Shown: positions 582-52,624 of the stretch, one piece after another
How positions within the stretch are numbered: position 1 is the stretch's first letter
How the letters are laid out: every line of letters begins with the position of its first letter
Origin: Minisyncoccota bacterium
Lineage (GTDB): Bacteria; Patescibacteriota; Minisyncoccia; Phycocordibacterales; DAORIS01
Assembly: GCA_035438625.1 (NCBI GenBank)
Contig: DAORIS010000001.1
Coordinates: 56,104-120,103, forward strand
DNA length: 64,000 nt
Direction: 5' to 3'
The notes under the pieces: model-generated
Databases searched by the model: none
What the model saw: only the letters and a program-made list of their open reading frames with translations
Told to the model about the DNA's origin: nothing
Translations under genes and position numbers: made by a program

Positions 582-582
582 C

Positions 583-610
583 TTGATTTTTTAATATTAT
601 GTGGTATAAT
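583..610 (+). promoter_or_regulatory. Sigma70-like promoter with extended -10 (TTGATT-16-TGgTATAAT) upstream of the ATP-grasp gene
   Basis: Read directly: cTTGATTttttaatattatgTGgTATAATac, 20 nt before the ATG at 631. Confidence 0.4.
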
Positions 611-630
611 ACACTAACCAAACTAATTTC

Positions 631-1995
631 ATGAGAATTCTATTCATTTCGAAAGATATGATTGCCGGTGACCTCTCGAGAAAACTCAAGGAAGAGGGTC
701 ATGATGTAAAGTTATTTATTGACACAAAAGACGGTAAACACTGTCTTGACGGCTTTGTTAATAAAACTCAAAACTGGAGAAGTGAACTTTCTTGGGTAGG
801 AAAAGAAGGCTTAATAGTATTTGATGATACTGGATACGGAAAAGTTCAAGACAAATTGCGCCAAGAAGGCTACGTTGTTTTTGGCGGATCAGAAATCGGA
901 GAAAAAATCGAGATTGATCGTGAGTACGGTCAGGAAATTTTCGCTCAATACGGAATAAAAACAGTGCCGCTGAAAGATTTTTTTGATGTAAGCGAAGCAA
1001 TTGAGTTCATTAAACAAAATCCAGGGAAGTGGGTTCTAAAACACAACGAACACCTTAATAAGCATTTGACCTACACCGGAATTCTTGATGATGGTAGCGA
1101 TGTAATTGATGTACTTGAAAATCATAGGAAAAATCACACATTGAGTGAAAAAACTATAACTTTACAAAAACTCTTAGAAGGAATTGAGATTGGAGTAGGA
1201 AGATTTTTTAATGGAAATGACTGGGTTGGGCCAATAGAAATGAATATTGAGCATACACGATTGTTTCCAGGTGATGTTGGTCCAATTACTAGTGAAATGG
1301 GTACATTAGCTTGGTATGATGATAGCGATTCAAATAAACTCTTTCAAGAAACACTTGCTAAGCTCAAACCATTCCTAAAAAGCACTGATTACCGTGGGGA
1401 TGTTGCAATTAATTGTATTGTAAATTCAGACGGCGCATTTCCACTTGAAGCAACTATGCGTCTCGGAACTCCTATAGTTCATCTACAATCCGAGATTCAC
1501 TCATCTCCATGGGGAGAATTTCTTCACGCAATAGCTTCCGGGGAAGAATATGATTTAAAGTGGAAAGTTGGATATGGTATTGCTGTTATGATCGCAGTTC
1601 CTCCGTTTCCATACGCACATAAATTGGGAAGATACTCACTAACTGGAGCAAGTATTTTTTGCAACTATAAACAAGGTACGAAAGAGGCCACACATATCCA
1701 TTTTGAAGAAGTTGGCATTAAAGATCACAAGCAATTGTACATTGCCGATTCTAGGGGTTACATTATGTATGCTACAAACATGGGCGACTCCGTAGAACAA
1801 GCAAGATCAAATGTATACAAAATCATTAAAGGGGTAAACATTCCACAAATGTTTTACCGAAACGATATCGGTTATAAATTTATCGTTGAAGATAAGATCA
1901 AGTTACAAAAATGGGGATACTTAAATAAGATTGAAAAAGTTGGGCATGAGAAAGTTAAGGGGGGAATTGAGTTTGATATATCAAAACTTTATTAA
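631..1995 (+). CDS. PurD-like ATP-grasp ligase (phosphoribosylamine-glycine ligase family, divergent)
   Basis: N-terminus [15 protein letters not shown]...EEGHDV matches the PurD pre-ATP-grasp start. [22 protein letters not shown] aligns to PurD [45 protein letters not shown] aligns to PurD [25 protein letters not shown]. 454 aa, longer than PurD. Confidence 0.55.
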   Translation: [454 protein letters not shown]

Positions 1996-2041
1996 CCTTA
2001 AAGCACCTATACTTCTACAGTATGGTGGTACAATTTAATTT

Positions 2042-2413
2042 GTGGAAATTAAAGATAAAATTTTTATAATCCTACTATTTGTTGCTTCAGTTTTAACTAT
2101 TTCTGCTGCATATAGTAGAGTGTACATAACAAAAGATTTTCTATTTACGATAGAAAGAGAGTGTTCTCCAGAGACAGAAAACTGTTTTGGATATGAATCA
2201 GAGGAAGGGGATACTATTTATTATAAGATACTTGAGGCCCCTGCCACACTCATAAACAATCAATGCGGAAACGATATAAGTAGCTGTGAAATTAGCTGCG
2301 ACGAATCAATTAAAAGTTGCAGATATATTTTTTGCACAGATCCCGATGCAGGAAAATATGGCGAGTGTTATTTAAATGAAGAAAACACAGATACACCTGA
2401 AACTTCTTTATGA
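2042..2413 (+). CDS. Small secreted cysteine-rich protein (GTG start; N-terminal signal/TM; 11 Cys)
   Basis: FIILLFVASVLTISAAYS signal-like segment followed by ECSPETENC...NQCGNDISSCEISCDESIKSCRYIFC...GECY. Stop overlaps the start of the next gene (ATGA at 2410-2413). Confidence 0.45.
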   Translation: MEIKDKIFIILLFVASVLTISAAYSRVYITKDFLFTIERECSPETENCFGYESEEGDTIYYKILEAPATLINNQCGNDISSCEISCDESIKSCRYIFCTDPDAGKYGECYLNEENTDTPETSL

Positions 2414-3462
2414 TAGATAAGGAATATGTAACTAAGATTTTATATATTGGATTAGATCCAGAAACTCCAATAGTAATTAATAAAAGGCCAATTCAAGTAA
2501 TAGGTGTTTCAAGCTTAGAATATTTCTCTTATCGTACCCTAAACCCGGCAAATTTATTATTTACCGCAACGTACAGGGCTCAAACAAACAAGATTAACAA
2601 ACGATTCACTCTATTTCTTTTTTGGCTATGGAAAGCAATTAGTTTTCTTTCAACATATCCATATAAAAAATATTCTAATTACCTATCTTTTTGTGTACTA
2701 AATTCTGTTCACATTATAGATGTATCTAACGAAGAGAGTACCCTAGATTACATTACTGAGAATCGCATTGAACTAATAGTAGTTAATAGTTGGTCAATAT
2801 TACCTCAAAAAATTGTTACAGCACCAACATTTGGCACATTAAACATACACCCATCAAAATTACCAATGTATAAAGGTGCATTACCTACACTTTGGTCTTT
2901 AAAAAATGGCGATTCCAAATCAGCCGTAACGTATCAAAAAATTGGCACGTTAATTGACGGTGGAGACATTATTTCTCAGTATGAATTTAATATCGATCCT
3001 ACCGACACTTCGCTGTCAATTGAGTTGAAGATTAGTCAAATTATTAAAAAAACCCTCTTTCAGGATATCCTTAACTATACAAATAAGAAAATTATTCTTA
3101 GACAACAACAAGGAATTGAATCGTGGACTGAAAAATATTCCCAATATATGCAAATTGATTGGGAACATGAAACATCAAAAGAAATTGCAGATAAAACAAT
3201 TTTATACCCTTTTCTGGAGCCTTTTTGTTATTGTTATAGCAGCATAAATGCTAATAAAGTTTACTTTAAGCGTCTTCGTGTACTACCAACACAAGGGAGA
3301 GGTACTTTTCAGCCTGGGCAATATATAATAAGAAATATGGGCATCGTTGTCACTACATATTCAGGAAATTTATTTGCAAGATTATTTATTGATGTACCTT
3401 TAAAAGATAGTCTTTTGCTGCTATTTAACAGTAATAGAAGGTTCGAAAAAACCACATTATGA
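2410..3462 (+). CDS. Formyltransferase-family protein (Fmt/ArnA/PurN-like N-domain plus C-terminal extension)
   Basis: LIVVNSWSILPQKIV...GTLNIHPSKLPMYKGALP matches the formyl_trans_N signature N-[IV]-H-P-S-L-L-P-x-[YF]-[RK]-G. Compare Fmt in this same window: LNIHPSLLPKYRGPSP. Translationally coupled to both neighbours. Confidence 0.6.
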   Translation: MIDKEYVTKILYIGLDPETPIVINKRPIQVIGVSSLEYFSYRTLNPANLLFTATYRAQTNKINKRFTLFLFWLWKAISFLSTYPYKKYSNYLSFCVLNSVHIIDVSNEESTLDYITENRIELIVVNSWSILPQKIVTAPTFGTLNIHPSKLPMYKGALPTLWSLKNGDSKSAVTYQKIGTLIDGGDIISQYEFNIDPTDTSLSIELKISQIIKKTLFQDILNYTNKKIILRQQQGIESWTEKYSQYMQIDWEHETSKEIADKTILYPFLEPFCYCYSSINANKVYFKRLRVLPTQGRGTFQPGQYIIRNMGIVVTTYSGNLFARLFIDVPLKDSLLLLFNSNRRFEKTTL

Positions 3463-5201
3463 CAACTTGCAACTTTCTTCCAGATCCAACATATCTTTTT
3501 TTTAGCTCAGAAGCACCAGTATTACTGTACTATTCACATTTTCCAGCAATAGCAATCACATTACTTCTTGGGTTGTTTGTATTTTTAAGCAATCGTACAC
3601 TTGCAAGTAAATTACTACTTACTATCTCGGTCTTACTTTCTGGATGGACATTACTTAATTTAATTGCATGGACAAACAATGTTGTTGAGAATGTATTATT
3701 TGTATGGTCACTGTTTGGATTAATGTATGGATTAATTTCTGTATTTTCTATATATCTTACTTATGTGTTCATACACAAGAATGATATTCCGTTAAGATAC
3801 AAAATTACATTTGGATTGCTCCTTTTACCAATTTTAATATTTACTTCAACAAAATTTAACCTGAGTGGTTTTTATTATGATCTTTGCGGAGCGTCAGGAC
3901 ATGAAAATGTTTACTTTTTAACGTACTACACTACACTTGGCATCATTTCGATGGTTTGGATTTTTGGACTACTTTTTAAGGCAATTAGAAGGTGCGATAC
4001 GCTTTTTAAAAAGCAAATTTTGCTATTTGGTATCGGTATAGAGTTATTCCTGTCATCTTTCTTTGTATCAAGCTTTCTTGCTAGTTACCTGAACGAGAAA
4101 GGACTTGTGTCTGACTACAGTTTAGAATTCTATGGTTTATTTGGAATGGTGCTGTTTATGGCATTTATTGCATTTATAATTGTTAGATTTAAAGCATTTA
4201 ACGTAAAACTTCTTGGTGCACAAGCCTTGATTGTGGCGCTGATAATTCTTATTGGATCGGAATTTCTATTTGTTGAGAACACATTAAACCAAGTATTAGT
4301 TTCTATTACATTAATTGTTACAGGAATAATCGGCATCGTATTGATTCGTAGTGTTAAGAAGGAAGATTTAGAAAAAGAGAAAATTGAGATGTTAGCAATA
4401 AGTCTTAAGGCAGCAAACGAAAGACTCGAGCGTCTCAACCAAGAGAAGACCGAATTCATCTCGCTTGCAACTCACCAAATCCGTGCTCCACTATCTGCAA
4501 TCAAAGGATACGCTTCACTCATCCTTGAAGGAGACTACGGAGAGACTTCTGATGATATTAAGGACGCAGTTTCAACCATGTACTCTTCTGCGCACAACCT
4601 TGTAGGTGTCGTTGGTGACTATCTCGATATCTCACGAATCGACCTTAACCGGATGAAGTTTAACTTCTCTGATGTTGATCTGAAGCAAACACTCTCAGAG
4701 ATCGTTAAGGAACAGCAACCAAACCTTCGTGGTAAGGGTCTTGAGCTACTCTGGCACCCAGACTCAAGCCTCGCAAAAACTGTTATTTCAGCCGACATTG
4801 GAAAGATTAAGCAGGTTATTAGTAACCTAATCGATAACGCGATTAAATACACTCCAAAGGGATCAATCACGCTTTCTCTTGCTAATGCTGCAAAACTTGA
4901 ACCTGGCACTAAGGGATTCAGGATCACGATCCAAGACACTGGTATCGGACTAAACGAACAGACAATACCTAAACTATTTAAGCGTTTCAGTCGTGCAGAC
5001 AGCGCTCATGAGGTAAACGTACATGGAACTGGTCTTGGACTATACCTCGCACGAAAGATGGTAGAGGCTCATAGTGGAAAAATCTGGGCTGAATCAGATG
5101 GAGAAGGAAAAGGTTCACGATTTATCATTGAACTTCCAGTAAAGGCAGAGCTTAGAGAGAATAGTTTGGCTGATGGAGAAGAGGAAGAAGGCAAAGTATA
5201 A
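3459..5201 (+). CDS. Sensor histidine kinase with polytopic (~7 TM) N-terminal sensor
   Basis: H-box EFISLATHQIRAPLSAIKGYASLI. N-box VISNLIDNAIKYT. G-box GTGLGLYLARKMVEAHSGKIWAESDGEGKGSRF. About seven hydrophobic helices in the first 300 aa. No response regulator adjacent. Confidence 0.85.
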   Translation: MTTCNFLPDPTYLFFSSEAPVLLYYSHFPAIAITLLLGLFVFLSNRTLASKLLLTISVLLSGWTLLNLIAWTNNVVENVLFVWSLFGLMYGLISVFSIYLTYVFIHKNDIPLRYKITFGLLLLPILIFTSTKFNLSGFYYDLCGASGHENVYFLTYYTTLGIISMVWIFGLLFKAIRRCDTLFKKQILLFGIGIELFLSSFFVSSFLASYLNEKGLVSDYSLEFYGLFGMVLFMAFIAFIIVRFKAFNVKLLGAQALIVALIILIGSEFLFVENTLNQVLVSITLIVTGIIGIVLIRSVKKEDLEKEKIEMLAISLKAANERLERLNQEKTEFISLATHQIRAPLSAIKGYASLILEGDYGETSDDIKDAVSTMYSSAHNLVGVVGDYLDISRIDLNRMKFNFSDVDLKQTLSEIVKEQQPNLRGKGLELLWHPDSSLAKTVISADIGKIKQVISNLIDNAIKYTPKGSITLSLANAAKLEPGTKGFRITIQDTGIGLNEQTIPKLFKRFSRADSAHEVNVHGTGLGLYLARKMVEAHSGKIWAESDGEGKGSRFIIELPVKAELRENSLADGEEEEGKV

Positions 5202-5229
5202 TTGCCTTTGAAAGATTTCGGCAAGAATA

Positions 5230-5754
5230 ATGCTGATAAAGATGCCAAAATATTTTTTACAATTAGGGTTCAGTTTGTATGCGACAATCGACAACATAAA
5301 ACAACCACAGTTTAGAAAATTGCTGTTCATTTTACTGTCTAAATATTTCCAAATATTGTTACTAGTTGCACCTTCTAGAAAATTCTCTATTTATCATCGA
5401 TTAGGTATCATTTCTCTTAGAAATAAGAATTTCAACAAAGCAGCCCATTACTCATCACGTATGGATACTCTTATTTCCTCAGAAGATGAGCATTCACGGT
5501 CATTGCTTTTTCATGCAAACGTTTTATTTGAGAAAGGAGAGTATCATGTGGCACTAAACGAATATTTTAACCTAATTAAAGTATCTAGATTTAAATCACT
5601 AATTCTTTCAAACATTGCATTTACATATGAAATAATTGGCGATGTTAGTAATGCTCAACTTTATGCTAAGAAATCAATTGAATTTTCAGCTTTAGAAAAA
5701 GATTTAGCACATACGATTGATCCATCTGAAAATCTAAAAAATTTGATCCAATAA
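5230..5754 (+). CDS. Hypothetical protein (TPR-like helical C-terminal half)
   Basis: ORF only. AT-rich, weak TPR-like pattern HANVLFEKGEYHVALNEYFNLIK...AFTYEIIGDVSNAQLYAKKSIEF. Confidence 0.3.
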   Translation: MLIKMPKYFLQLGFSLYATIDNIKQPQFRKLLFILLSKYFQILLLVAPSRKFSIYHRLGIISLRNKNFNKAAHYSSRMDTLISSEDEHSRSLLFHANVLFEKGEYHVALNEYFNLIKVSRFKSLILSNIAFTYEIIGDVSNAQLYAKKSIEFSALEKDLAHTIDPSENLKNLIQ

Positions 5755-5865
5755 CTTGACAACGTCTTTTGTAAAAGCTTTACTAATTCCAATCCATACT
5801 CCAATGAAGACACGAAACTAGTTTAATAGCTAAACCACCACGCAAGACGCGTTGGTATTTCGTGT

Positions 5866-7308
5866 ATGTCCATTAAGAACCCCAAACAATCCCTCATATC
5901 AATCAAGGGAATCAGTAAAAAATTTGACCAACTAGAAATCCTCAAGGATGCTAGTTTTTCTGTGCTACCTGGAGAGAAAATTGGCCTTGTGGGACCAAAC
6001 GGATCAGGGAAGAGCACACTATTCAAAATACTTGCAGAGCAAGTTGAAAAAGACGCTGGTGTAATTGAAAAGGCTAAAAGTATAAAGATTGAATACCTTC
6101 CTCAGACTCATGAAAATGATCCTAGTTATACTAACCAAAGTGGAGGTGAAATGGCGCGACAAATTCTTGCACCGATTATTGCCTCTAATGCCGACTTATT
6201 TCTCCTCGACGAGCCGACCAACAACCTCGATGCAGAAGGACTCGAGATGATTGAATTGTTTGTATCCAAAAGTAACAAAGCATTTATCATCATCTCTCAC
6301 GACCGTCGATTCCTGGATACGGTTGTTACAAAAATTCTTGATATCGATGTAGAAACAAAATCCATCATGATATATGACGGAAACTACAGCTCGTATGCTG
6401 AGCAAAAAGAAGCATTTCTCGAACGTCGATGGAAAGAATATACAGATAAAATAGAGGAAGTAGACAGGCTTAACACCTCGCTTACACAAAGAGTTTCGTG
6501 GATTAAAGAGATCGAACAAAAGCGTTTTAACATAAGGAACCTCCCAATCCACGAAAAGGAAAAGTCTCACGCTGCATATTTACGTGACAAAGAAGCCAAG
6601 GCGGGAAGGCGAGCTCGTGTCATGAAAGACAGGTTAGAAACATACAAGCAAGATGTTGAATCAGTTCGTAGACCAAAGGAGTTACTACCACTCAAAATAT
6701 CGTTTGATTCAAAGCGGGGCAGCACAAAGGTATTTGATCTCATCAAAGTTGAGAAGGAAATTGGTGATAAGCGAATAGGCCCTATTGATATGCACATCCA
6801 GCACGGAGACAGGATTCACATCACCGGTCCAAATGGGGCTGGAAAGACTACGTTTATCAAAATGTTGCTTGGAGAAATCCAACCAACCAATGGAGCAATC
6901 GAACGCGGAGAGACAGTTCATATTGGATACGTCCCACAAGAACGTTGGATACCGCGTGGAGACAAGACAGTCATAGAAGAATTTCTAGACACCTCAACGG
7001 CAAATGGTGTAGACATTTCTCAAACTGATGCACGAAAAATCCTCAATAGGTTTAGAATCACTGCTGAAGATGTATTAAAGCACCTTCGAGAGCTTAGTCC
7101 TGGCGAATACTCTCGACTAGTCATTGCTGAACTTGTTGCTCAAAAACCAACATGTATCATCCTGGATGAGCCAACAAACCACTTAGACCTTGAAGTTGCG
7201 ACTGAAATTGAAAAAGCACTTTCGACATATTCAGGAGCATTAATAATCGCGAGTCACGATAGGTATTTTGTTGAAAAAGTGGGACTTGATACTATGGTGA
7301 CACTATAG
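5866..7308 (+). CDS. ABC-F family ATPase (two tandem ABC domains, no TM domain)
   Basis: Walker A motifs GPNGSGKST and GPNGAGKTT. Signature motifs QSGGEMARQ and LSPGEYSRL. Walker B motifs LFLLDEPTNNLD and IILDEPTNHLD. Charged inter-domain linker. Confidence 0.85.
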   Translation: MSIKNPKQSLISIKGISKKFDQLEILKDASFSVLPGEKIGLVGPNGSGKSTLFKILAEQVEKDAGVIEKAKSIKIEYLPQTHENDPSYTNQSGGEMARQILAPIIASNADLFLLDEPTNNLDAEGLEMIELFVSKSNKAFIIISHDRRFLDTVVTKILDIDVETKSIMIYDGNYSSYAEQKEAFLERRWKEYTDKIEEVDRLNTSLTQRVSWIKEIEQKRFNIRNLPIHEKEKSHAAYLRDKEAKAGRRARVMKDRLETYKQDVESVRRPKELLPLKISFDSKRGSTKVFDLIKVEKEIGDKRIGPIDMHIQHGDRIHITGPNGAGKTTFIKMLLGEIQPTNGAIERGETVHIGYVPQERWIPRGDKTVIEEFLDTSTANGVDISQTDARKILNRFRITAEDVLKHLRELSPGEYSRLVIAELVAQKPTCIILDEPTNHLDLEVATEIEKALSTYSGALIIASHDRYFVEKVGLDTMVTL

Positions 7309-7310: not shown

Positions 7311-7814
7311 ATGAACATTAAATCAACATTCACAAATCGGTTTGGAGACACACTTCACGTATCCTATTTTGAATCTGATCCGTATCAAGACTTAGAAGGA
7401 AAGCATCTGAAAAATATTCATGCGTATTGTTTCCATAAAAGCAACCTCATCCTTGTTAACCACCCAAAAAGCGGATGGATGCCACCCGGAGGCGGGATTG
7501 AACCTGAAGAAACTGTAGAAGAAGCCACAATTCGTGAAGTAAAGGAAGAGACAAATATGAACGTACTTCATCAAGAGGTAATTGGGTATCAAGATGTAGA
7601 AGAAAAAGACGGCAAAATTATACGCCAAGTACGGTGCCTTTGTATTGTTGAGCCACACGGAGAATTTGTCTCAAATCCTGATGGAGAAATCATGGAAATA
7701 AAAGCCATTGATCCGTCTGAATACAAACAGTATTTTGATTGGTTACAAATTGGAGACAGGGTCATGGAAAGGGCTTTATACTTGAAAAGGTTGTACGAAA
7801 ATGAATTGATATAG
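7311..7814 (+). CDS. NUDIX hydrolase
   Basis: Nudix box GGGIEPEETVEEATIREVKEETNM (G-x5-E-x7-R-E-x-x-E-E). Confidence 0.75.
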   Translation: MNIKSTFTNRFGDTLHVSYFESDPYQDLEGKHLKNIHAYCFHKSNLILVNHPKSGWMPPGGGIEPEETVEEATIREVKEETNMNVLHQEVIGYQDVEEKDGKIIRQVRCLCIVEPHGEFVSNPDGEIMEIKAIDPSEYKQYFDWLQIGDRVMERALYLKRLYENELI

Positions 7815-10285: not shown

Positions 10286-10930
10286 ATGTTTCGACAGATC
10301 GTATCCGTTGTGACCTGCGTTGCAGCCACTATATTCTCGTTCCTCTCGACCCAGTCTGCGCACGCGGCGCCCATTACGGCAACCATCACCGGTACCGGTT
10401 CTGGACAGCTCAAAACATCAGGTCCAGTTCCTTTCACTTCATTTACTCAAAAAGCATTTGAAGTGACACTTATTGGCGATACCTCCAGTGTCGAACTGGA
10501 AATATTGCCACCGATTGGACCCTGGCCGGCAATGAATGTGCAAATCATGCCAGCACTTGAAGCGACGCTTCGACTCAACAATGGCACCCCGTACGAGATC
10601 TCGAACCCAACTCAAGCATTCTACAATGAGCACTTCGGCATCGTTGGTTTCAGCAAGCTGACACCAGGCGGCGTAAACGACTTCCTCAACGTCGAAGCCG
10701 GGAGCGCATTAGTTGGGTTCTCATTCAATTCCAACGTGCTCGTGACTGACCCAACTCCTCCCGAGTGGACACTCGATTTCTTTGACCTGCAATTTTCAAA
10801 CGGCGGTCGAATCATTATGGATGACTTTACTGGATCCATGACGTTTCGAACAACCGGCGTCTCTCCTGAACCCAGTTCAGCACTTTTCGGGATTATGTGT
10901 GTACTCTTTACCCGCCGATCGAAGCGTTGA
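10286..10930 (+). CDS. Secreted PEP-CTERM sorting-domain protein
   Basis: N-terminal signal peptide ...FLSTQSAHAAP. C-terminus VSPEPSSALFGIMCVLFTRRSKR has a PEP motif, a hydrophobic helix and an Arg/Lys tail, which is the exosortase-dependent PEP-CTERM architecture. Segment is G+C-richer than flanks by inspection. Confidence 0.7.
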   Translation: MFRQIVSVVTCVAATIFSFLSTQSAHAAPITATITGTGSGQLKTSGPVPFTSFTQKAFEVTLIGDTSSVELEILPPIGPWPAMNVQIMPALEATLRLNNGTPYEISNPTQAFYNEHFGIVGFSKLTPGGVNDFLNVEAGSALVGFSFNSNVLVTDPTPPEWTLDFFDLQFSNGGRIIMDDFTGSMTFRTTGVSPEPSSALFGIMCVLFTRRSKR

Positions 10931-15236: not shown

Positions 15237-16307
15237 ATGATTTCAGACGTCGTCAAAGTATTCCTGCCATTCATCATTTCATTTTGTATTGGTATTGCGA
15301 TCACTCCATTTTGGACACACTATTTGTATGCAAATAAACTATGGAAAAAGAAGGCGGGAAAACTAGCGTCTGATGGAACATCAGCAGTAGTCTTTAATGA
15401 AATCCACAAAGACAAAGAAGTTGGAACACCTCGTCTTGGTGGAGTAATTATTTGGGCAAGTGCAATTATCACCATCGCACTCTTTTGGTTATCAAGGTAC
15501 GTTCTCCCTGAAGGATTAGCAGCAAAGATAGACTTCCTCAGCCGAAGTCAGACATGGATTCCACTCGTTGCACTCATCATCGGAGCACTCATTGGATACG
15601 CTGACGACATGATGGAAATCAAAGGAAGTCGTGATCATCACGCTGGAGGACTATCACTTCGAAAGCGCCTCGCTATTGTTACCGCAATTGGACTATCTGT
15701 TGGAGCATGGTTCTTTTACAAACTTGATGTCGTTTCAATCGGCATTCCATTTTATGGACCACTTTTTGTTGGATTTTTAATCATTCCGATATTTATTTTC
15801 GTACTCCTTGCCATTTACGCGTCAGGTGTGATTGATGGAATTGATGGACTTTCTGGTGGAGTATTTGCATCTGCGTTTGCTGCATATGCTGGTATCGCAT
15901 TCTTCCAAGACCAATATGACATTGCAGCATTTTCAGCAACCATTACAGGAGGAATACTTGCATTCTTATGGTTCAACATTCCACCAGCCAGGTTCTACAT
16001 GACAGAGACAGGTAGCATGGCACTCACCATTACCCTTGGAATTGTCGCCTTCATGACCGACTCACTTGGAGGGGGGATAGGTCTTCTTATTCTACCTATT
16101 GTTGCACTTCCACTTGCTGTCACTGTCTTTACAAACGTCCTTCAGGTACTTTCAAAAAGGATCAGAGGAAAAAAGATCTTTCATGTTGCACCCATTCACC
16201 ATCATTTTGAAGCTCTGGGCTGGCCTTCGTATAAAGTGACGATGAGATACTGGATTATTAGTGTTGTTTCAGCGATTTTCGGTATTGTGATCGCTCTTTT
16301 GGCGTAA
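15237..16307 (+). CDS. mraY: Phospho-N-acetylmuramoyl-pentapeptide transferase
   Basis: GTPRLGGVIIW, DDMMEIKG...GLSLRKRL, GVIDGIDGLSGG and HHHFE motifs. Ten TM helices. Confidence 0.9.
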   Translation: MISDVVKVFLPFIISFCIGIAITPFWTHYLYANKLWKKKAGKLASDGTSAVVFNEIHKDKEVGTPRLGGVIIWASAIITIALFWLSRYVLPEGLAAKIDFLSRSQTWIPLVALIIGALIGYADDMMEIKGSRDHHAGGLSLRKRLAIVTAIGLSVGAWFFYKLDVVSIGIPFYGPLFVGFLIIPIFIFVLLAIYASGVIDGIDGLSGGVFASAFAAYAGIAFFQDQYDIAAFSATITGGILAFLWFNIPPARFYMTETGSMALTITLGIVAFMTDSLGGGIGLLILPIVALPLAVTVFTNVLQVLSKRIRGKKIFHVAPIHHHFEALGWPSYKVTMRYWIISVVSAIFGIVIALLA

Positions 16308-16558
16308 ATGGATGTTTAAGGTGGGTTCGAGTCCCTGACCCCCCAGCAAGCAAAGCTGAGCGGGTTAACAAGACAGGTGGTGGTGTAACGATTAGAGGTG
16401 AGCACCGTCTGGATCAACAAACTGCATCCAAATCAACAGATCGTTAGGTGAATCAAAGTTTTGGTTGTGGATAGCCCAATCTTTCTCCATACTGGAGATA
16501 TCACACACTGTTTATTCCCAAAAGGCATGTAGAAAATTTAACAGACATCACTACCGAA

Positions 16559-16825
16559 GTGTTCCTGGACCATCAGTATTTCCACAGATTGATCATAAAA
16601 CACATGTTGGATTTAGGATTAAAACATTCAGATGGGAAACCAATTGATCAATTTAATACTATGATCAGAGAAAGGTTTGAGGGAATTCCAGATGGTTCAA
16701 AATGCTATAAGCCAAAACACCTACACATACACCTTGTTCCTGACAAGGAAGGAGTTGATAGGTTTGTACTCGATGAAAGTGCAGTACACATTAATATTCA
16801 GAAAATTTCGCTATCTGTAAAGTGA
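16559..16825 (+). CDS. Hypothetical protein
   Basis: ORF only. Lies in the junction zone after mraY. Confidence 0.25.
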   Translation: MFLDHQYFHRLIIKHMLDLGLKHSDGKPIDQFNTMIRERFEGIPDGSKCYKPKHLHIHLVPDKEGVDRFVLDESAVHINIQKISLSVK

Positions 16826-17397
16826 TTCTAAGAATAACTACACAACGCATTCCCAAATTAACACTACGTAGAAAAGGTATACTACCTGGACCACACATGC
16901 ACCACATACAACTTATTAACTTCGAACATATCAAAGAGAGCGAAGCGTCAACATACACCTTTCGTGAAGCTGTCCGGGCAATAGTATTTGATGCAAATAA
17001 AAAGATAGCGTTACTTCATGCAAAAAAAGATAATTATTTCAAACTACCAGGTGGTGGCATAGAAAAAGATGAGGAAAAAATTGAAGCTTTAAAACGTGAA
17101 TGCAGGGAAGAGCTGGGATGTGAAATTGATATATTTTGTGATCTTGGAATTGTTACCGAAAACAGAAGTAAAAACAAAATGAAGCATATCTCATACTGTT
17201 ACATGGCACATGTTATAGGAGAAAAAGGAACACCACATATGACCGAGAGTGAAATTCGAGAAGGATTCCATGTTATCTGGATTCCAATTACAGAAGCTAT
17301 CTTAAAGTTAGAATCTGTTACAAACACCACATATCCTGGGTCATACATGGTCGCACGAGACCTCGCGTTTCTAAAAATAGGTTCTCATATTTCTTAA
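16822..17397 (+). CDS. NUDIX hydrolase (second copy; true start may be the internal Met at ~16897)
   Basis: Nudix box GGGIEKDEEKIEALKRECREELGC. Confidence 0.6.
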   Translation: MILRITTQRIPKLTLRRKGILPGPHMHHIQLINFEHIKESEASTYTFREAVRAIVFDANKKIALLHAKKDNYFKLPGGGIEKDEEKIEALKRECREELGCEIDIFCDLGIVTENRSKNKMKHISYCYMAHVIGEKGTPHMTESEIREGFHVIWIPITEAILKLESVTNTTYPGSYMVARDLAFLKIGSHIS

Positions 17398-17533
17398 GCA
17401 CTTAGGACAAGAACTTCGAGTAAGCTGTTGCCAAGATTGGTAATATCTGGTACTGTTTTTGCAGCATATCGTTAAATTTTTGGTTACGTTTGTAGCCGAT
17501 TAGCGAAAGCTGTCCTTTGTTTGGAGGCCTGCT

Positions 17534-17854
17534 ATGATTCGTCGCATTCTTGCGTCTCTGTGCATCTCCGTCCTTTCTGTCCTCTTCATCGTCGGCGCTA
17601 CACCCTCAACGGCTCAAGCAGCTGCGACCCAGGGGTATAACTACTCCTGTGGGGTTGATAATCCCAACAGCACGCAGTGTAGGCGCCAACTGTACCGTGA
17701 AATGCGGAGTTGCCAGCAGAAGATCGTCCAGGGTACACTCGTGTACTCCTGCGAACCAGTCAAAAAGGCCCTACTCGTATCAAATGATGTCGAGATAATG
17801 TTGAGCACGTTCGGCAGTGAAAACAGCAACACCGACGTTACCCCGGCCAGTTAG
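17534..17854 (+). CDS. Small secreted cysteine-containing protein (G+C-richer island)
   Basis: Signal peptide LASLCISVLSVLFIVGATPSTAQAAAT. Four Cys in the mature part. Confidence 0.4.
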   Translation: MIRRILASLCISVLSVLFIVGATPSTAQAAATQGYNYSCGVDNPNSTQCRRQLYREMRSCQQKIVQGTLVYSCEPVKKALLVSNDVEIMLSTFGSENSNTDVTPAS

Positions 17855-18007
17855 TCTCGGCGCAAAGCCAGGCCAAGCCTGGAAGTCAGTAGTTATTCCA
17901 AACTACTGACTTTTTTGTTCGCAGGACAAACAGTGTAGATATTGCTTTTTTTAATATTTGTGGTATAAATATTTTAAGAGTTCTCTGACAAACGTCAGGA
18001 ATATACG

Positions 18008-18970
18008 TTGAAATTGATTCCACCCTCTAACTCGGGAGTTGTCATGTACAACCAGAAACCAGTAATTGTTGCTGTAATTCTCTTTGTGATATGTGCCATA
18101 ACAATAGGTATGGCAACAGTGATGAGCTACCGCCATAGACCCAAACTTACACTCTCAGACAACTCAGTTGTTGTCGGTAAGTCTGTGTCAGACATCGGTC
18201 GTTATGGCGAACCTGGATATGAATACCTACAGGTTCGCGACCTGGAAGCCAAGCGAGTGTATAAGACACTCACCATGTCGCCCGTAAGTGCAGATCCAGC
18301 GAAACTTGCACCATTGTTTGAGGACTTGATTCGTAGTGAACTTAAGAAGCGTCCAGCTGTTGCACACTATGTAACAGTGAAAATGTTTCAAGAGCTACGA
18401 TCAAAAGTTGCCCTCGTCATTGCAAGTGATAGTGGAATGACACGAGAAAATTATGTCAGCCACTTTCCAGGAGCAAGACCACTACCACCAGAATCTGTTG
18501 TGATGCCGGAAGGCAAAACACCTGAAATGCTTTTCAACGAATTTTACGATGAGAAGTTATCCTCAGGCGTACAACTGCGTTCAATCTGTCTCGATCCAAA
18601 GTCCGTTGCGCTATCTTTCAATTGGTATCGTCTTCCAGATGATGTCCGGCAAGGGTTACTCGATAAGAGTGACCAATACCCAGCATCATTTCTTGGAATG
18701 AACGTTGCGTCAGCGCGAGGTTTCGTGTTTTATCGAAACCCAAACTACGAAGCGCTCATGAAAAAGCAAGCTGAGGTTCTATGCTTCAGTGGTAGCTTCA
18801 TTGTTGAAAGCAACGCACTCGTAACTGGACCAGACGGCAAAGAAAATTATGACAGATATCCTCTGAACATGACCTTTGTGTTTGATCCTGAGACGAAAGA
18901 ATGGTGGCTGGAACATGTCGAGCGAACCGTAAGTGTAGTTGCGAGTAACCAAAAAATCATGGTCAATTAA
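18008..18970 (+). CDS. Hypothetical N-terminally membrane-anchored protein
   Basis: TM helix VIVAVILFVICAITIGMATV followed by ~280 aa with no recognised motif. G+C-richer. Confidence 0.4.
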   Translation: MKLIPPSNSGVVMYNQKPVIVAVILFVICAITIGMATVMSYRHRPKLTLSDNSVVVGKSVSDIGRYGEPGYEYLQVRDLEAKRVYKTLTMSPVSADPAKLAPLFEDLIRSELKKRPAVAHYVTVKMFQELRSKVALVIASDSGMTRENYVSHFPGARPLPPESVVMPEGKTPEMLFNEFYDEKLSSGVQLRSICLDPKSVALSFNWYRLPDDVRQGLLDKSDQYPASFLGMNVASARGFVFYRNPNYEALMKKQAEVLCFSGSFIVESNALVTGPDGKENYDRYPLNMTFVFDPETKEWWLEHVERTVSVVASNQKIMVN

Positions 18971-19481
18971 GGAGGTCATCGTGTTGAGACAGAAACTCAA
19001 GTCTCTCTTCTTCATGACATTCCCAATCCTGATTGGATTATTACTATTTGGTGTTGCTTTATACAAAGCATCCCACCTAGAAGAATTCGGTCGGTCGGTC
19101 GCTGAATTACCCCTCATTACAAGTGAGACCTTACCAATCTTAACGATTGGAGTCCCAATGGTTGAAGGGTTTCTCGGGATACTGATTCTCATAACTCCCG
19201 CTCACAGGGGAGTGTTAGTCGGTATACCGACCAGCGCACTGTTTCTTGTATTCATTACGTTTCACTTTTGGAGGATTTACGCCGGACTTATAACACCGTG
19301 CAGCTGTGGAATTCCATTGTTTGGCATTCCACCAGAATACCAATCGCATGCGATGATCATCTTCTGCACTATTGTTTTGAACCTCTGCCAACTGTGGTGG
19401 TGGTTCAAAGAAACACCACCCTCAAAGAGCACCACGAAAGAACGTGGTACTCAGAAAGGTCTCTATGAAGGTGCGGTGTAA
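18939..19481 (+). CDS. DoxX/MauE-like 4-TM membrane protein with CxC-G motif
   Basis: Four hydrophobic helices. LITPCSCGIPLFGIPPE resembles MauE/DoxX-family membrane proteins. Weak assignment. Confidence 0.35.
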   Translation: MRVTKKSWSIKEVIVLRQKLKSLFFMTFPILIGLLLFGVALYKASHLEEFGRSVAELPLITSETLPILTIGVPMVEGFLGILILITPAHRGVLVGIPTSALFLVFITFHFWRIYAGLITPCSCGIPLFGIPPEYQSHAMIIFCTIVLNLCQLWWWFKETPPSKSTTKERGTQKGLYEGAV

Positions 19482-20325
19482 TAAACACGCGTTTACACTT
19501 TCTGAACTACTTGTTGTTATCGGAATCATCGGAATTCTTTTTGCGCTCGTCGTACCTGCACTTGGCATCGCACGACGACACGCACAAAGAACCAAATGTT
19601 TGAGTAATTTAAGGCAGATTGCTCAGGCCACGATGGTGTACGTAACAAATCATCGTAGACTTCCAGTTGGTTCGATGATGATCAATTGGCCAACAAATGA
19701 TCCGCCGACCACTGCACAGTTCGACGCCTTACCACTACCATTCTTCGAGAGTCTGCTCCAACAAACAACCACCTTGGATTTGAAAAAAATCCAACCCTGG
19801 TCCGAGGTGACGAAGAATGTCCACACTGCAAAGATCCTGCTCTGTCCGAACGACGAGCTGGAATCTAAGTCAGTAGATGAACAGGTGAGTCAGTTTGTGT
19901 ATGCATACACATCTTCCAGGCCTACACTCTTTGACTCACACAGGAAAAACGTAGTGAGTTACGAAGTTAATTATGGTCTGGTGAACACCACATCCAGAAC
20001 TGAACTCCAGGATAAGTGGTACAACGGTAACCCATCCAAAGTTAAGCGCCCTACATCCATGGTTCTCTGTGGAGAAGGAATGGGGATTGGTGAGTTTAAA
20101 CACACCTGGGTTCCTGATGTGCAATTTCCCGAAAAGAGTTTGACGTTTGCTGATGTATACAAAGGTAACGGAGTCATGCAGTATTCAGAACTCCGGACAA
20201 TAAATCCCTTTGATATGAAACGACATGGAGGCAAGAGTAATTTTGTCTTCCTGGACGGTCACGCTGAAACAGTGACTATTAACGAGAAGGATCTCTCACA
20301 GTATGATCTGCTTCAGGAAAGATGA
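19465..20325 (+). CDS. DUF1559-type protein: prepilin-like N-terminal cleavage/methylation helix plus C-terminal H-X9-DG motif
   Basis: KHAFTLSELLVVIGIIGILFALVVPALGIARRHAQRTKCLSNLRQIAQATMVY matches the PVC-superphylum DUF1559 N-terminus (RGFTLIELLVVIAIIAIL...[24 protein letters not shown]). C-terminal HGGKSNFVFLDGH is exactly H-x9-DG. Confidence 0.75.
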   Translation: MKVRCNKHAFTLSELLVVIGIIGILFALVVPALGIARRHAQRTKCLSNLRQIAQATMVYVTNHRRLPVGSMMINWPTNDPPTTAQFDALPLPFFESLLQQTTTLDLKKIQPWSEVTKNVHTAKILLCPNDELESKSVDEQVSQFVYAYTSSRPTLFDSHRKNVVSYEVNYGLVNTTSRTELQDKWYNGNPSKVKRPTSMVLCGEGMGIGEFKHTWVPDVQFPEKSLTFADVYKGNGVMQYSELRTINPFDMKRHGGKSNFVFLDGHAETVTINEKDLSQYDLLQER

Positions 20326-20360
20326 CCACGTCAGTTCTTGTTTGTTCTTTTTTACAGCTT

Positions 20361-20400
20361 AGGCCCCAGACGCATATGCGCCCGGGGCTTTTCTTTTCTT
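20361..20400 (+). terminator. Rho-independent terminator after the DUF1559 gene
   Basis: ggcccc-agacgcatatgcgcc-cggggc followed by ttttcttttctt. The inner cgcatatgcg is itself palindromic. Confidence 0.5.
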
Positions 20401-20520
20401 GTAAACCCAATCTTTTTGCTAGTATATCGAACTGAAGATTTAGATGTATATGTAAAGGAGATAATAGAAAAAGACCCATACGCGATTGTGTCATAAACAC
20501 TTCGCATACGGGTCAATTTG

Positions 20521-20811
20521 TTAGTTGGATGCCGCGGTTGACATCCATGAGAAATCGGGCGGCACTTTAACGAACACCATTTCACCAGGAATTGTCGATC
20601 CATTAATTTCCTGGATCAGGTCAGTTACTTCTCCATCGGTAACCATGTTGTGTTGTCTTGCATCTCGCAATGCTGAGACAAACTCAGCCTTAGACCAACA
20701 TTCAATGGTGCAATTACGATTTCGAAAGCGAATCCACCCATGCAGACCACACGATTCACATATTTCCAGTCGAGCAGGGTACTTAGATTCACGATTGTCG
20801 TATCCTTCCAT
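20521..20811 (-). CDS. Small zinc-ribbon-like protein (Met start at 20811 with AAGGAG SD)
   Basis: MEGYDNRESKYPARLEICESCGLHGW...NRNCTIECW has two Cys pairs. The + strand ORF 20525..20863 on the opposite strand has junk-like composition. Confidence 0.3.
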   Translation of the reverse strand: MEGYDNRESKYPARLEICESCGLHGWIRFRNRNCTIECWSKAEFVSALRDARQHNMVTDGEVTDLIQEINGSTIPGEMVFVKVPPDFSWMSTAASN

Positions 20812-20937
20812 TGGGATCTCCTTGTTGATTTTTTTGGTGCGATCTAAGTATATTATAGCATAATTAAGCAATTTGTCAAATATAATACAACATAAAATCT
20901 GTGGATTTTTAAAGTTCTTACATAATGCCGTACAATA

Positions 20938-22071
20938 GTGCAAATGGCCCGTTCAGTAACAAAGGCAGTACAGAAGAAAGGAGCCGATAAAGGCTTGTTC
21001 TTTTTAGTTATCGGACTTGTTGTTGTTGGCTATATTATTTTCTTTTCTGCATCACTTGGACTCCTTGGGCGCGACGAAACAACCATTGGTGGCATCGCAC
21101 TGAAACAAGCAGTTGTGGGTATCCTCGGTGGGGCAGTAGCACTCTTTGTCTGTTCAATTATTCCCACAGACCACATTAGGAGGTTTTCGCCTTGGATATT
21201 CATCGGAGCGATTTTTGTAAACATGCTCATATTTATTCCTGGTATGTCTATTAGCGCTGGAGGTGCAACACGTTGGCTTGATTTGGGTTTTATCTCATTC
21301 CAGCCAGGAGAAATGCTCAAGTTTGCAGCTGTCTTGTTTTATGCAGCACTCCTTCGTCGTAACCGTGACGAAATGGATACATTTAAAGGAGGATTACTAC
21401 CACTCCTTGCAATTGGAGGCATTACAACCGGCATACTTCTTCTCCAGCGAGACACGGACCCAATTATTGGACTTGCACTAGTCCTCATGTTTTTCGTCTC
21501 AGGTGGTCGTTGGAAAGATCTTATAATCGTTGCACTAATCGCTTGTGTTGGTATTGGAGGATTGTTATATACCCGTCCGTATGTTTTGGATCGTGTAAAA
21601 ATATTTATTGACCCATCACAAGACTCACTTGGTTCCGGATACCAAGTACAGCAATCACTGATTGCCATTGGTAACGGAGGATTTTGGGGCCAAGGATTTG
21701 GCCAAAGCGTACAAAAGTTTAAATATCTTCCAGAGCCTGTCGGAGACTCGATATTTGCTGTTGCGGGAGAAGAATTTGGCTTTGCTGGGGCAGCATCCTT
21801 GGTAATTCTATATCTGGTACTTTCTGTTCGACTTTCAACACTTGCGTCACGCACAAGAGATGCTTTTGGAAGAGCTGTCATTATCGGCTTCTTAACCCTG
21901 ATTGTCGGCCAGTCATTTATGAATATTGGGGCTATGGTCAGCATTTTGCCACTAACCGGAGTACCACTTGCATTCATCAGCCACGGAGGAACAGCCCTTC
22001 TATTTGCTCTGGCTGAAATCGGCATTATATTAGGCATTTCTAAGGGGAAATCGTCGAGTTCTGCCGCATAG
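20938..22071 (+). CDS. ftsW: SEDS-family peptidoglycan glycosyltransferase FtsW/RodA
   Basis: SEDS pattern PGEMLKF, LLLQRDTDP and IAIGNGGFWGQGFGQSVQKFKYLPEPVGDSIFAVAGEEFGF. Confidence 0.85.
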   Translation: MQMARSVTKAVQKKGADKGLFFLVIGLVVVGYIIFFSASLGLLGRDETTIGGIALKQAVVGILGGAVALFVCSIIPTDHIRRFSPWIFIGAIFVNMLIFIPGMSISAGGATRWLDLGFISFQPGEMLKFAAVLFYAALLRRNRDEMDTFKGGLLPLLAIGGITTGILLLQRDTDPIIGLALVLMFFVSGGRWKDLIIVALIACVGIGGLLYTRPYVLDRVKIFIDPSQDSLGSGYQVQQSLIAIGNGGFWGQGFGQSVQKFKYLPEPVGDSIFAVAGEEFGFAGAASLVILYLVLSVRLSTLASRTRDAFGRAVIIGFLTLIVGQSFMNIGAMVSILPLTGVPLAFISHGGTALLFALAEIGIILGISKGKSSSSAA

Positions 22072-22094
22072 CGACTGGATGATATACTTGGCCA

Positions 22095-23225
22095 ATGAAA
22101 ATCGTTCTGACAGGAGGGGGAACTGGTGGCCACTTTTACCCACTGATTGCTGTAGCTGAAGAAGTGCAACGGATCGCCAAAGAAAAGAAACTCCTCACAC
22201 CTCAGTTGTACTTTATGTCGCCCCATCCATACGACGAGGGCATCCTCTATGAACACGGAATTCGGTTTATTAAAATTCCTGGCGGAAAAGTACGTCAGTA
22301 TTTCTCAATCAGAAACTTTTTTGATGTGTTTGTAACTGCATATGGTGTTATTAAGGCATTATGGGATATGTTGGTCCTGTATCCTGATGCGGTATTTTCA
22401 AAAGGTGGGTATGGTAGTTTTCCAACACTCATCGCTGCCCGCTTTTATCGCATTCCAATCATTGTCCATGAATCAGATACGGTTCCGGGAAAAGTGAACC
22501 TGTGGTCTGGAAAGATTGCATATCGAATTGCTGTTTCATATCCTGAAGCTGCACAATATTTTCCTAAAGATAAAGTTGCTGTGCTTGGAAACCCGGTTCG
22601 ACCATCTATCTCCATCGCATCAAAAGACACTGGAAAGGAGTATTTTGGCATCCCAGCCGCACGAAAGACTGTACTTGTCCTTGGAGGCTCACAAGGAGCA
22701 AAAATCATTAACGAAGCCATTCTAGAAGCTTTGCCTGATCTTGCAAAAGAGTATTCGGTCATCCACCAAACTGGTACGGCAAACTTTGAGGAAATTAAAA
22801 ACACTTCCTCTGTGGTCGTTTCGGATCCAAGTATTCTTGCAAACTATAAGCCATTTCCAAACCTCGACCCACTACACTTAAAAATGGCAGCGGGAGCAGC
22901 GGACGTGATCATCACTCGAGCAGGATCAACCCTCTTTGAAATTGCACTGTGGGAAACTCCAGCGATTGTCATTCCAATTACTAAATCAAATGGTGACCAC
23001 CAAAAGAAAAACGCTTTTGCGTATGCAAGAGCTGGCGCAGGATTAGTCATTGAAGAAAATAACTTAACTCCACACGTTCTCGTCTCAGAAGTTCGGAGAA
23101 TTGTTGAGACTCCTGCAATTTCAGACAGCATGAAAGCAGCAGCAAAAAGCTTTGCGAAGCCTGACGCTGCTGCAAAAGTTGCGGAAGCCTTGCTTGCTAT
23201 TGGTCTAACCCACGAAACAGAATAA
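22095..23225 (+). CDS. murG: Undecaprenyldiphospho-muramoylpentapeptide beta-N-acetylglucosaminyltransferase
   Basis: MKIVLTGGGTGGHFYPLIAVAEE N-terminal G-loop. C-terminal GGSQGAKIIN...ITRAGSTLFE. Confidence 0.9.
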   Translation: MKIVLTGGGTGGHFYPLIAVAEEVQRIAKEKKLLTPQLYFMSPHPYDEGILYEHGIRFIKIPGGKVRQYFSIRNFFDVFVTAYGVIKALWDMLVLYPDAVFSKGGYGSFPTLIAARFYRIPIIVHESDTVPGKVNLWSGKIAYRIAVSYPEAAQYFPKDKVAVLGNPVRPSISIASKDTGKEYFGIPAARKTVLVLGGSQGAKIINEAILEALPDLAKEYSVIHQTGTANFEEIKNTSSVVVSDPSILANYKPFPNLDPLHLKMAAGAADVIITRAGSTLFEIALWETPAIVIPITKSNGDHQKKNAFAYARAGAGLVIEENNLTPHVLVSEVRRIVETPAISDSMKAAAKSFAKPDAAAKVAEALLAIGLTHETE

Positions 23226-42533: not shown

Positions 42534-42554
42534 GTGGCTATAATACCAAAGCTA

Positions 42555-44270: not shown

Positions 44271-44289
44271 CGTGCGATAAGTATACGAC

Positions 44290-44604: not shown

Positions 44605-44622
44605 TTATTTTAAAAGTTACTG

Positions 44623-52615: not shown

Positions 52616-52624
52616 GACAACGCA

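Follow-up and report, generated by a model that had tools for sequence, protein, structure and literature searches.

A four-gene cassette with a DUF1559 prepilin-type protein and MauE between mraY and ftsW of a Paceibacterota genome

We analysed a stretch of 64,000 nucleotides (the window) from a Minisyncoccota bacterium (contig DAORIS010000001.1 of assembly GCA_035438625.1, positions 56,104 to 120,103). The genome belongs to the candidate phyla radiation (CPR, Patescibacteria) and has a GC content of about 43%. In the window, the cell-wall genes mraY and ftsW are separated by 4.6 kb (Table 1). Most of this interval is taken up by a tightly packed operon of four genes with its own ribosome-binding site and terminator; among the genomes that share the junction, the operon is present in the window genome only. 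The four genes encode a small secreted cysteine protein, a membrane-anchored protein (the 320-aa protein), a MauE protein and a prepilin-type protein of the family DUF1559. An earlier reading of the letters alone (the sequence-only reading) had described this gap and its gene content, and both agree with the listing of open reading frames (ORFs) and with the Pfam and NCBIfam scans.

Table 1. Features at and around the mraY–ftsW junction (positions in the window; aa, amino acids; TM, transmembrane).
Feature	Position	Strand	Description
mraY	15237-16307	+	PF00953; left flank of the insertion site
T-loop-like 11-mer GGTTCGAGTCC	16324-16334	+	Exact match, inside a scrap of ~52% GC (16310-16440)
Decayed HIT-family gene	~16448-16825	+	IPKRHV..., histidine triad HLHIHL; in-frame stops at 16445 and 16472; N-terminus gone
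NUDIX hydrolase, 166 aa	16897-17397 (ORF from 16822)	+	PF00293, 1e-13
Cassette gene 1, Sec-secreted protein, 106 aa	17534-17854	+	Four mature Cys; GGAGG Shine-Dalgarno 7 nt upstream
Cassette gene 2, membrane-anchored extracytoplasmic protein, 308/320 aa	18044 (or 18008)-18970	+	N-terminal TM helix, helical domain, C-terminal cone
Cassette gene 3, MauE	19014-19481	+	PF07291, 43.1 bits against a cut-off of 27; 17-nt overlap with gene 4
Cassette gene 4, DUF1559/H-X9-DG prepilin-type protein, 286 aa	19465-20325	+	Leader MKVRCNKHA, mature F10-T-L-S-E14
Intrinsic terminator closing the cassette	20361-20400	+	GGCCCCAG...CCGGGGC, then TTTTCTTTTCTT; palindrome; -17.7 kcal/mol, z=-2.35
Cys-containing gene, 96 aa (CxxC...CxxxC)	20521-20811	-	Divergent from ftsW; native to the locus, outside the cassette
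Sigma-70 promoter of the 96-aa gene	20852-20879	-	TTGACA-16-TG-TATAAT, 12/12, extended -10; AT-rich divergent region shared with ftsW
ftsW-murG	20938-23225	+	PF01098, PF03033, PF04101; right flank of the insertion site
ftsW	20938-22071	+	PF01098, 6e-84
murG	22095-23225	+	PF03033 and PF04101

The mraY–ftsW interval

Closer relatives of the locus were collected stepwise, starting from FtsW homologues. In three of them, mraY and ftsW lie 17 nt (L029), 4 nt (L030) and 3 nt (L010, Patescibacteria) apart. The gene order of these relatives matches that of the window over 20 kb. The window MraY is 71%, 62% and 42% identical to theirs, respectively, and the window FtsW and MurG are 63% and 67% identical to their L029 counterparts. 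The neighbourhood hisK ... trpS-scpA-scpB-S11 peptidase-mraY-ftsW-murG-gltX-M23 is common to the window, L029 and L030, and L030 additionally matches the window in L27, L9, S41 and CorA. The mraY–ftsW interval is an insertion into this otherwise conserved junction, as the sequence-only reading had proposed. The ancestral order is trpS-scpA-scpB-S11 peptidase-mraY/ftsW-murG-gltX-M23, with mraY abutting ftsW and without murD.

The absence of murD had been counted as part of the disruption. The gene is indeed missing: it was found neither in 16308-20937 nor among the scanned window ORFs, and the Mur ligase at 41202-42533 (443 aa) is MurF-like. However, none of L029, L030 and L010 has murD at the junction, so its absence is ancestral and not an effect of the insertion. 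The canonical order mraY-murD-ftsW, against which the gap had been judged, does not apply to this lineage.

Both junctions of the insertion are reproduced in a 118.7-kb JGI contig (Ga0119868_1000020), in a 140.4-kb contig of an NCBI metagenome-assembled genome (MAG) and in Logan contigs from SRR1145916. One Logan contig spans the NUDIX gene and the cysteine protein gene; the other runs from the gene of the 320-aa protein to a 473-aa gene past M23. NCBI labels the MAG contig (proteins HRH25921-HRH25930, locus tags PLF31_00385 to PLF31_00420) Candidatus Paceibacterota bacterium. The labels of the best named FtsW relatives are, without exception, Parcubacteria, Paceibacterota, Pacebacteria or plain 'bacterium'.

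A sister lineage (L028) lies much closer, with FtsW, MurG and GltX that are 95%, 93% and 95% identical to those of the window and ftsW DNA that is about 83% identical. Its mraY–ftsW interval measures 5.9 kb and encodes a HIT protein of 119 aa, a 272-aa protein, a dCMP deaminase, five NUDIX proteins (one of them also of 166 aa) and a HIT protein of 149 aa. No MauE, N_methyl or DUF1559 match occurs in this 5.9-kb interval. In 5.8 billion protein clusters, the closest matches besides the genome itself were 31% identical for the prepilin and 32% for the 320-aa protein; the sister therefore lacks orthologues of both.

The inserted DNA consists of two layers. The HIT pseudogene, which weakly matches an NCBIfam model of HIT-type ATP adenylyltransferases, and the NUDIX gene have G+C contents at third codon positions (GC3) of 0.34 and 0.29, similar to the core genes. 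The reverse-strand 96-aa protein is 47% identical (E 4e-27) to the product of a 101-aa gene in the same ftsW-adjacent position of L028. The native-like composition of the first two and the sister homologue of the third place them in an older, variable HIT/NUDIX layer. The four-gene block at 17534-20325 is specific to the window genome, and the older layer of HIT/NUDIX-type genes and a small divergent gene is common to the clade of the window genome and its sister. The mraY/ftsW junction has turned into a variable spot. Thus the 4.6 kb are not one insertion, as had been assumed; the new cassette accounts for only about 3 kb. The earlier gene list stood as described, including a NUDIX gene that is the second of the window (the first is at 7311-7814), but it overlooked the HIT pseudogene and the reverse-strand gene.

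The 96-aa protein has no family match in the Pfam, NCBIfam or PADLOC scans, and its gene is unusually fast-evolving (47% to the sister versus 93-95% for the flanking proteins). The sister contig (JGI 3300071358, 24,755 bp) carries a dense array of nucleotide-hydrolase genes at the hotspot.

The composition of the interval changes with the cassette. A G+C-richer block at about 17.4-20.5 kb had been noticed by eye, and the calculated values bear it out. Apart from the AT-rich first 8 kb, no 3-kb window has a higher GC content than 17501-20500 (0.452, z=2.85). The GC3 values of the four cassette genes, in order, are 0.636, 0.405, 0.475 and 0.463, against a mean of 0.349 (sd 0.042) for 34 core genes (Mann-Whitney p=0.001). 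Outside the first 8 kb, the most tetranucleotide-deviant window is 17251-20250; the deviation of the cassette is modest (z 2.0-2.6). The block is compositionally foreign and absent from the closest sister lineage, which is what the idea of foreign DNA in a core operon had implied.

We also looked for a vehicle. ORF and Pfam scans of 16308-20937 found no integrase or recombinase gene, and the search for direct repeats flanking the interval gave only short, low-identity matches of chance level. Plasmid relatives were not found by megablast of the whole interval or by tblastn of the 320-aa protein and the prepilin; phage relatives were not found by tblastn of the 320-aa protein against phages or by a viral-contig scan. 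Like integrase islands at tRNA genes, the cassette is compositionally distinct DNA at a recurrently variable site, and it is absent from the sister as well as from L029, L030 and L010. Unlike such islands, its block is only 3 kb long, and the phage and plasmid collections searched held no relatives. An integrative genomic island at a tRNA gene was rejected because integrase, flanking direct repeats and tRNA target are all missing.

The scrap behind mraY had been said to carry a tRNA-like T-loop motif. The 11-mer is present at that site; a tRNA is not detectable by ARAGORN, by Infernal with Rfam gathering thresholds, or with Rfam at E<=10 (16200-16600). The scrap folds no better than shuffled sequences (z-score 0.02), and three T-stem pairs at most can be drawn by eye. 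We rejected a tRNA or att site here, given that there is no tRNA call and that the scrap is unlike the 3' end of tRNA-Glu, the only tRNA of the window. A defence system was likewise rejected: PADLOC matched only the NUDIX protein (candidate family PDC-S07, E 3.5e-11) and nothing in the cassette.

The cassette proteins and their recurrence

The product of gene 4 matches PF07596 (DUF1559, SBP_bac_10) with 34.1 bits against a cut-off of 23.3; the match is partial, with residues 43-166 aligned to positions 3-125 of the 268 in the profile. It also matches the two models of the prepilin N-terminal motif (PF07963, 25.8 bits against 21.2; TIGR02532, 22.1 against 16.3) and the H-X9-DG model TIGR04294 (21.4 bits against 19), the last through an exact H254-x9-D264-G265. 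The assignment to DUF1559, which had been staked on a profile search, passes all four curated cut-offs. Phe at +1, Glu at +5 and the hydrophobic helix that follows are those of a prepilin signal. Across 67 H-X9-DG proteins, H254, D264 and G265 are conserved, and C45 and C127 are invariant. The C-terminus reads DLLQER. The predicted model appears to have a pilin-like fold and its fold matches are all pilins; sequence matches in the Protein Data Bank (PDB) are confined to pilin N-terminal helices.

Gene 1 has homologues in the same position in three low-GC loci (L017, L018 and L023). The alignment has 15 invariant columns, which include C39, C49, C60 and C73, and the low-GC loci have the motif Y-S-C-G-V-D-x-P-x3-Q-C ... 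C ... C in common.

The 320-aa protein has no Pfam or NCBIfam match. The AlphaFold2 model is confident (pLDDT, the predicted local confidence score, 92.5) and has, after an N-terminal TM helix, a helical domain and then a cone at the C-terminus. The C-terminal domain is predicted to be NTF2-like, and the fold matches include peptidoglycan-type NTF2 proteins. An exhaustive phmmer search of 1.84 billion proteins found 25 representatives of this unannotated family, none with a Pfam match.

The cassette MauE has four TM helices with C96-S-C98 in the TM3-TM4 loop, a Lys in TM1 and a Glu (E51) in TM2. All six cassette MauE proteins compared have the CXC motif and E51, and five of them have the TM1 Lys. 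After the CXC motif, the window protein has G-I where F-G is usual. MauE proteins from two phyla replace DsbB in Escherichia coli; this depends on the CXC motif of the TM3-TM4 loop, and the Lys and Glu line a predicted quinone site (preprint 10.64898/2026.03.05.709764). The cassette MauE has all of these residues in place. In the original Mau system, MauE is tied to the maturation of the small, disulfide-rich MauA subunit (preprint 10.64898/2026.03.05.709764).

The cassette can be compared with several known systems. With the DUF1559/H-X9-DG proteins of Planctomycetota and Verrucomicrobiota, the window prepilin shares the class-III signal peptide, C-L-S-N-L-R-Q-I, a second invariant Cys in C-P and the C-terminal H-x9-DG. 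It differs from the DUF1559 proteins of the Planctomycetes-Verrucomicrobia-Chlamydiae (PVC) bacteria in its Ala at -1, its DLLQ(E/K/G) tail, its fixed four-gene cassette and an identity of at most 31-41% to any database protein. Its host is a Paceibacterota (CPR) genome with a single copy in the 64-kb window, whereas Planctomycetota have tens of paralogues. The sequence-only reading had called the gene PVC-type, and the family has been described as apparently restricted to Planctomycetes (PMC10632474). A PVC-restricted family does not agree with a host MAG labelled Candidatus Paceibacterota. The earlier term is narrower than the data allow: for each cassette protein, the closest relatives belong to cassette copies of other low-GC genomes and not to PVC genomes.

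The likeness to GspG of the type II secretion system (T2SS) and to type IV minor pilins is confined to the first ~65 residues. The globular domain of the window prepilin is about twice the size of theirs and carries H-X9-DG, and no secretion or pilus operon surrounds it. GspG itself was rejected (TIGR01710, 33.2 bits against a cut-off of 88.85). The MauE of the methylamine cluster, which occurs with MauD, belongs to PF07291 like the cassette MauE and agrees with it in the four TM helices, the CXC motif between TM3 and TM4, and the conserved Lys and Glu; it, too, is paired with a small Cys-rich exported protein, MauA. The cassette MauE, in contrast, has no mau cluster and no MauD or DsbA partner, reads C-S-C-G instead of C-G-C-F-G, and sits beside a prepilin, to which it is fused in one case. 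Finally, the Verru_Chthon cassette (TIGR02596 and partners, from Verrucomicrobia/Chthoniobacter) is likewise a small, conserved, four-gene prepilin-type cassette, in the PVC group. It consists of several prepilin-like proteins, and is not known to include a MauE, an NTF2-like anchor or a Cys-rich peptide. The window prepilin weakly matches its protein D (E 3e-4); membership was rejected at 20.9 bits against a cut-off of 70.

Seven cassette loci were compared: the window, L016, which was reached through a match of the prepilin, and five whose contexts were retrieved via homologues of the 320-aa protein (L017, L018, L021, L023 and L024). A small Cys-rich ORF lies upstream of the 320-aa gene in all seven. 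MauE is adjacent or fused in six of the seven, and an H-X9-DG prepilin is present in six as well. The complete set of small 4-Cys protein, 320-aa homologue, MauE and H-X9-DG prepilin was found in L017, L018 and L023 (L019 and L020 are near-identical copies of L018). In L016, a contig of 64% GC, MauE and the prepilin form a single 489-aa protein (P0004), which is among the closest full-length matches of the window prepilin. The gene directly upstream of the fusion encodes a 322-aa protein that is homologous to the 320-aa protein along its full length (25% identity, E 3e-15), and a small Cys-rich secreted ORF precedes that gene. The fusion keeps the prepilin cleavage motif intact at the junction. 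The suggestion that these genes form a pseudopilin-associated module is borne out; the same set recurs at other loci.

The cassette prepilins share F+1, E+5, C45, C127, H-x9-DG and a DLLQ-type C-terminus. A tree of 72 H-X9-DG proteins was built by the unweighted pair group method with arithmetic mean (UPGMA) on p-distances, a cruder method than neighbour joining, and gave bootstrap values of 86% for the four low-GC cassette prepilins, 99% for the three high-GC ones and 70% for all seven. A phylogeny had been proposed as a check, and in it the cassette-linked prepilins cluster on their own. At least six other lineages have the cassette as a conserved unit, with the genes in the same order, and its prepilins are a sub-cluster of their own.

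The cassette genes of L017, L018 and L023 have GC3 values of 0.49-0.75, above those of most neighbouring genes. The prepilins of the window and L018 are 40% identical, and the Ddl proteins of the two only 27%. The raised GC3 in the other low-GC loci and this contrast in identity indicate that the cassette moves horizontally as a unit. L017 (JGI 3300053153, a 289-kb contig) looks highly mosaic: adjacent genes alternate between GC3 of ~0.25-0.31 and ~0.55-0.65, and the contig has a SWIB-domain gene. Searches of JGI metagenome contigs with the low-GC 320-aa alignment and scans for the peptide YSCGVD[NM]P gave no more cassette loci.

Two further observations concern the other loci. In two independent loci, the immediate upstream neighbours of the cassette, in divergent orientation, are genes for methionine sulfoxide reductases (msrB at L017 3861-4262; msrA and msrB at L018 4442-5369), which may be a redox link or a coincidence. 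The small Cys ORFs of the high-GC loci (L016 8736-8936, L021 1162-1425, L024 5588-5911) carry C-P-x-x-C together with CC and C...GC. They show no detectable homology to the Y-S-C-G-V-D type of the low-GC loci, and may be positional analogues or redox/metal-binding peptides.

Interpretation and alternatives

On balance, we favour a cassette that was acquired horizontally and works as a self-sufficient, disulfide-dependent pseudopilin module with its own DsbB-like oxidase. The proposal of an oxidative module follows from three things: MauE is DsbB-like, the other cassette products are exported and have conserved Cys or are Cys-rich, and MauE is fused to a prepilin motif in one locus. Natural transformation and recombination at the hotspot would be a plausible route of entry that needs no integrase. 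MauE would then introduce disulfides into the prepilin (the C45-C127 pair) and into the small protein with its four Cys. A prepilin peptidase of the host would cleave the pseudopilin behind Ala-1, and the host's type IV pilus or T2SS-like machinery would build the protein in as a minor or tip subunit. The membrane protein with the NTF2-like domain may be a docking or chaperone partner. With an oxidase of its own, the module would be portable also to CPR bacteria and other hosts that may lack DsbA and DsbB. A host apparatus is plausible, since type IV pili are well conserved in Patescibacteria, where they drive episymbiosis (PMC11623550).

Several observations weigh against this proposal. The prepilin has Ala at -1 (...NKHA/FTLSE) in place of the near-universal Gly. 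Ala stands there in five of the eight cassette-type prepilins, also in those of L017, L023 and L024 and in P0002; L018, P0004 and generic DUF1559 proteins have Gly. A search for the processing and assembly machinery, which the sequence-only reading had called for, did not turn out in favour of the module: neither the 64-kb window nor the 10 kb downstream of it contains a gene for a prepilin peptidase, a pilus ATPase or a platform protein. DsbB-like enzymes normally act via a thioredoxin-fold partner, and the Pfam and NCBIfam scans found no thioredoxin-fold protein encoded in the cassette. In general, CPR bacteria are not known to make quinones or to have respiratory chains, and the cassette host probably has no quinone pool. 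MauE has been proposed to use quinones (preprint 10.64898/2026.03.05.709764). The Cys residues of the 320-aa protein are not conserved and the role given to it is a guess. The set is also incomplete in two loci: L024 has the small Cys-rich ORF, the 320-aa homologue and the prepilin and no MauE, and L021 has the small Cys-rich ORF, the 320-aa homologue, MauE and a TPR protein and no prepilin on a contig that ends soon after. Loss of the cassette from the sister, instead of gain in the window lineage, is the less probable course.

A broader reading extends this proposal to the family, and we put it forward only tentatively, as a possibility that we would not bet on. The cassette would be a horizontally mobile 'oxidative-folding pseudopilin' operon common to PVC-like high-GC bacteria and CPR/low-GC bacteria. 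DUF1559 proteins would be MauE-dependent, disulfide-bonded subunits of a pilus or pseudopilus, and would work with a small Cys-rich ligand and a new membrane partner of the NTF2-like kind. Once acquired by CPR episymbionts, the operon would refit the surface of their type IV pili to serve attachment or uptake.

Among the alternatives, the one that survives best, though we think it unlikely, keeps the DUF1559 protein in the membrane. It would be an uncleaved, membrane-anchored extracytoplasmic binding protein or an H-X9-DG enzyme, in a redox or envelope-maintenance complex with MauE, the NTF2-like protein and the Cys protein. The msrA/msrB genes beside the cassettes of L017 and L018 and the peptidoglycan-type NTF2 matches hint at such a complex. 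However, the prepilin motif passes its curated cut-offs with F+1 and E+5 in place, the fusion protein retains the motif at its junction, as expected if it is cleaved, and pilins make up all the fold matches.

We give somewhat less credit to a cassette that makes a disulfide-rich secreted peptide, either a bacteriocin or a signal. The peptide would be matured by MauE, the NTF2-like protein would serve as immunity protein or receptor, and the pseudopilin would be a minimal export piston. T2SS pseudopili do act as export pistons. The small Sec-secreted Cys-rich ORF is the most constant companion (7/7 loci), and the pairing resembles that of MauE with the small disulfide-rich MauA in the original Mau system (preprint 10.64898/2026.03.05.709764). 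The small protein, however, carries a Sec signal of the usual kind and can cross the membrane without a pseudopilus. The cassette has no match to a bacteriocin, ribosomally synthesized and post-translationally modified peptide (RiPP) or defence family in Pfam, NCBIfam or PADLOC, and the small proteins of high-GC and low-GC loci show no detectable homology to each other.

That the genes are ancestral at this position and vertically inherited, with a composition that reflects amino-acid or expression bias only, is very improbable. The modest tetranucleotide deviation and the failure to find an integrase, an att site or a tRNA would fit such a history, and the HIT/NUDIX and reverse-strand genes are indeed older residents. 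Against it, mraY abuts ftsW in the three relatives whose flanking synteny is identical, the cassette is missing from the sister, whose flanks are 93-95% identical, and GC3, a synonymous-site signal, is raised in all four cassette genes. An assembly chimera or mis-binned PVC DNA on a CPR contig, for which the published restriction of DUF1559 to Planctomycetes (PMC10632474) could be cited, hardly deserves credence: the same joins occur in the JGI contig, the NCBI MAG contig and two Logan contigs, the GC content of the cassette (0.45) is not PVC-like, and its nearest relatives lie in other low-GC contigs.

The preferred reading, a horizontally acquired pseudopilin module with its own oxidase, bears on a family that has no known function and almost no literature. 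DUF1559/H-X9-DG proteins are the largest paralogous family in Planctomycetes, and Planctopirus limnophila has 68 copies, two of them essential (PMC10632474). The cassette gives this enigmatic family a conserved gene neighbourhood, its first fixed genetic context, and places it outside the PVC superphylum. With a Rosetta-stone fusion to MauE, the neighbourhood turns 'function unknown' into testable hypotheses; the broader reading, if true, would give the first functional handle on a large and partly essential family. The linkage of DUF1559 with MauE is not described in the literature that we searched, and the cassette, the MauE::prepilin fusion and the 320-aa family appear not to have been described previously. 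The last is a new and rare protein family (25 representatives in 1.84 billion proteins). A CPR genome has taken up a foreign surface module and kept it inside its most conserved string of cell-wall genes. An imported pilin-like protein with its own folding catalyst would be a plausible route to new host interactions of CPR bacteria, via type IV pili.

Other observations in the window

The division and cell-wall (dcw) genes and the elongasome genes of the window genome are dispersed. The genes mraW, ftsI and the MurF-like ligase are grouped at 41202-45513 (reverse strand). A second penicillin-binding protein and two MreB paralogues (51554-52615 and 57034-58044) are encoded elsewhere, within 48750-58044 (reverse strand).

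The start of the window, 1-6500, is strongly AT-rich (GC 0.32-0.36) and deviates far more than the cassette, with a tetranucleotide z of up to 4.6. Its genes are for a GARS-like ATP-grasp protein, a formyltransferase-like protein and a histidine kinase. The GARS-hisK order is the same in L030, and this DNA may be native despite its composition. The hisK-trpS interval is longer in the window than in L029 and L030. The gene at 10286-10930 (forward strand) encodes a 214-aa secreted protein and has the second-highest GC3 of the window (0.526); its product has no family match, and its C-terminus resembles a PEP-CTERM-type sorting signal (...GVSPEPSSALFGIMCVLFTRRSKR). This gene, too, may be of foreign origin.

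Just downstream of the window (L025 11140-20534), a large serine recombinase gene is followed by an island that adjoins fmt. The island encodes GmrSD/HNH, an EcoRI-type methylase, Fic and a metallo-beta-lactamase-fold protein, and is a separate mobile or defence island.

At 59071-60582 (forward strand), one 503-aa ORF joins an XRE-type HTH_3 domain at the N-terminus to MurA (EPSP_synthase domain). The fusion is also present in the JGI gene call.

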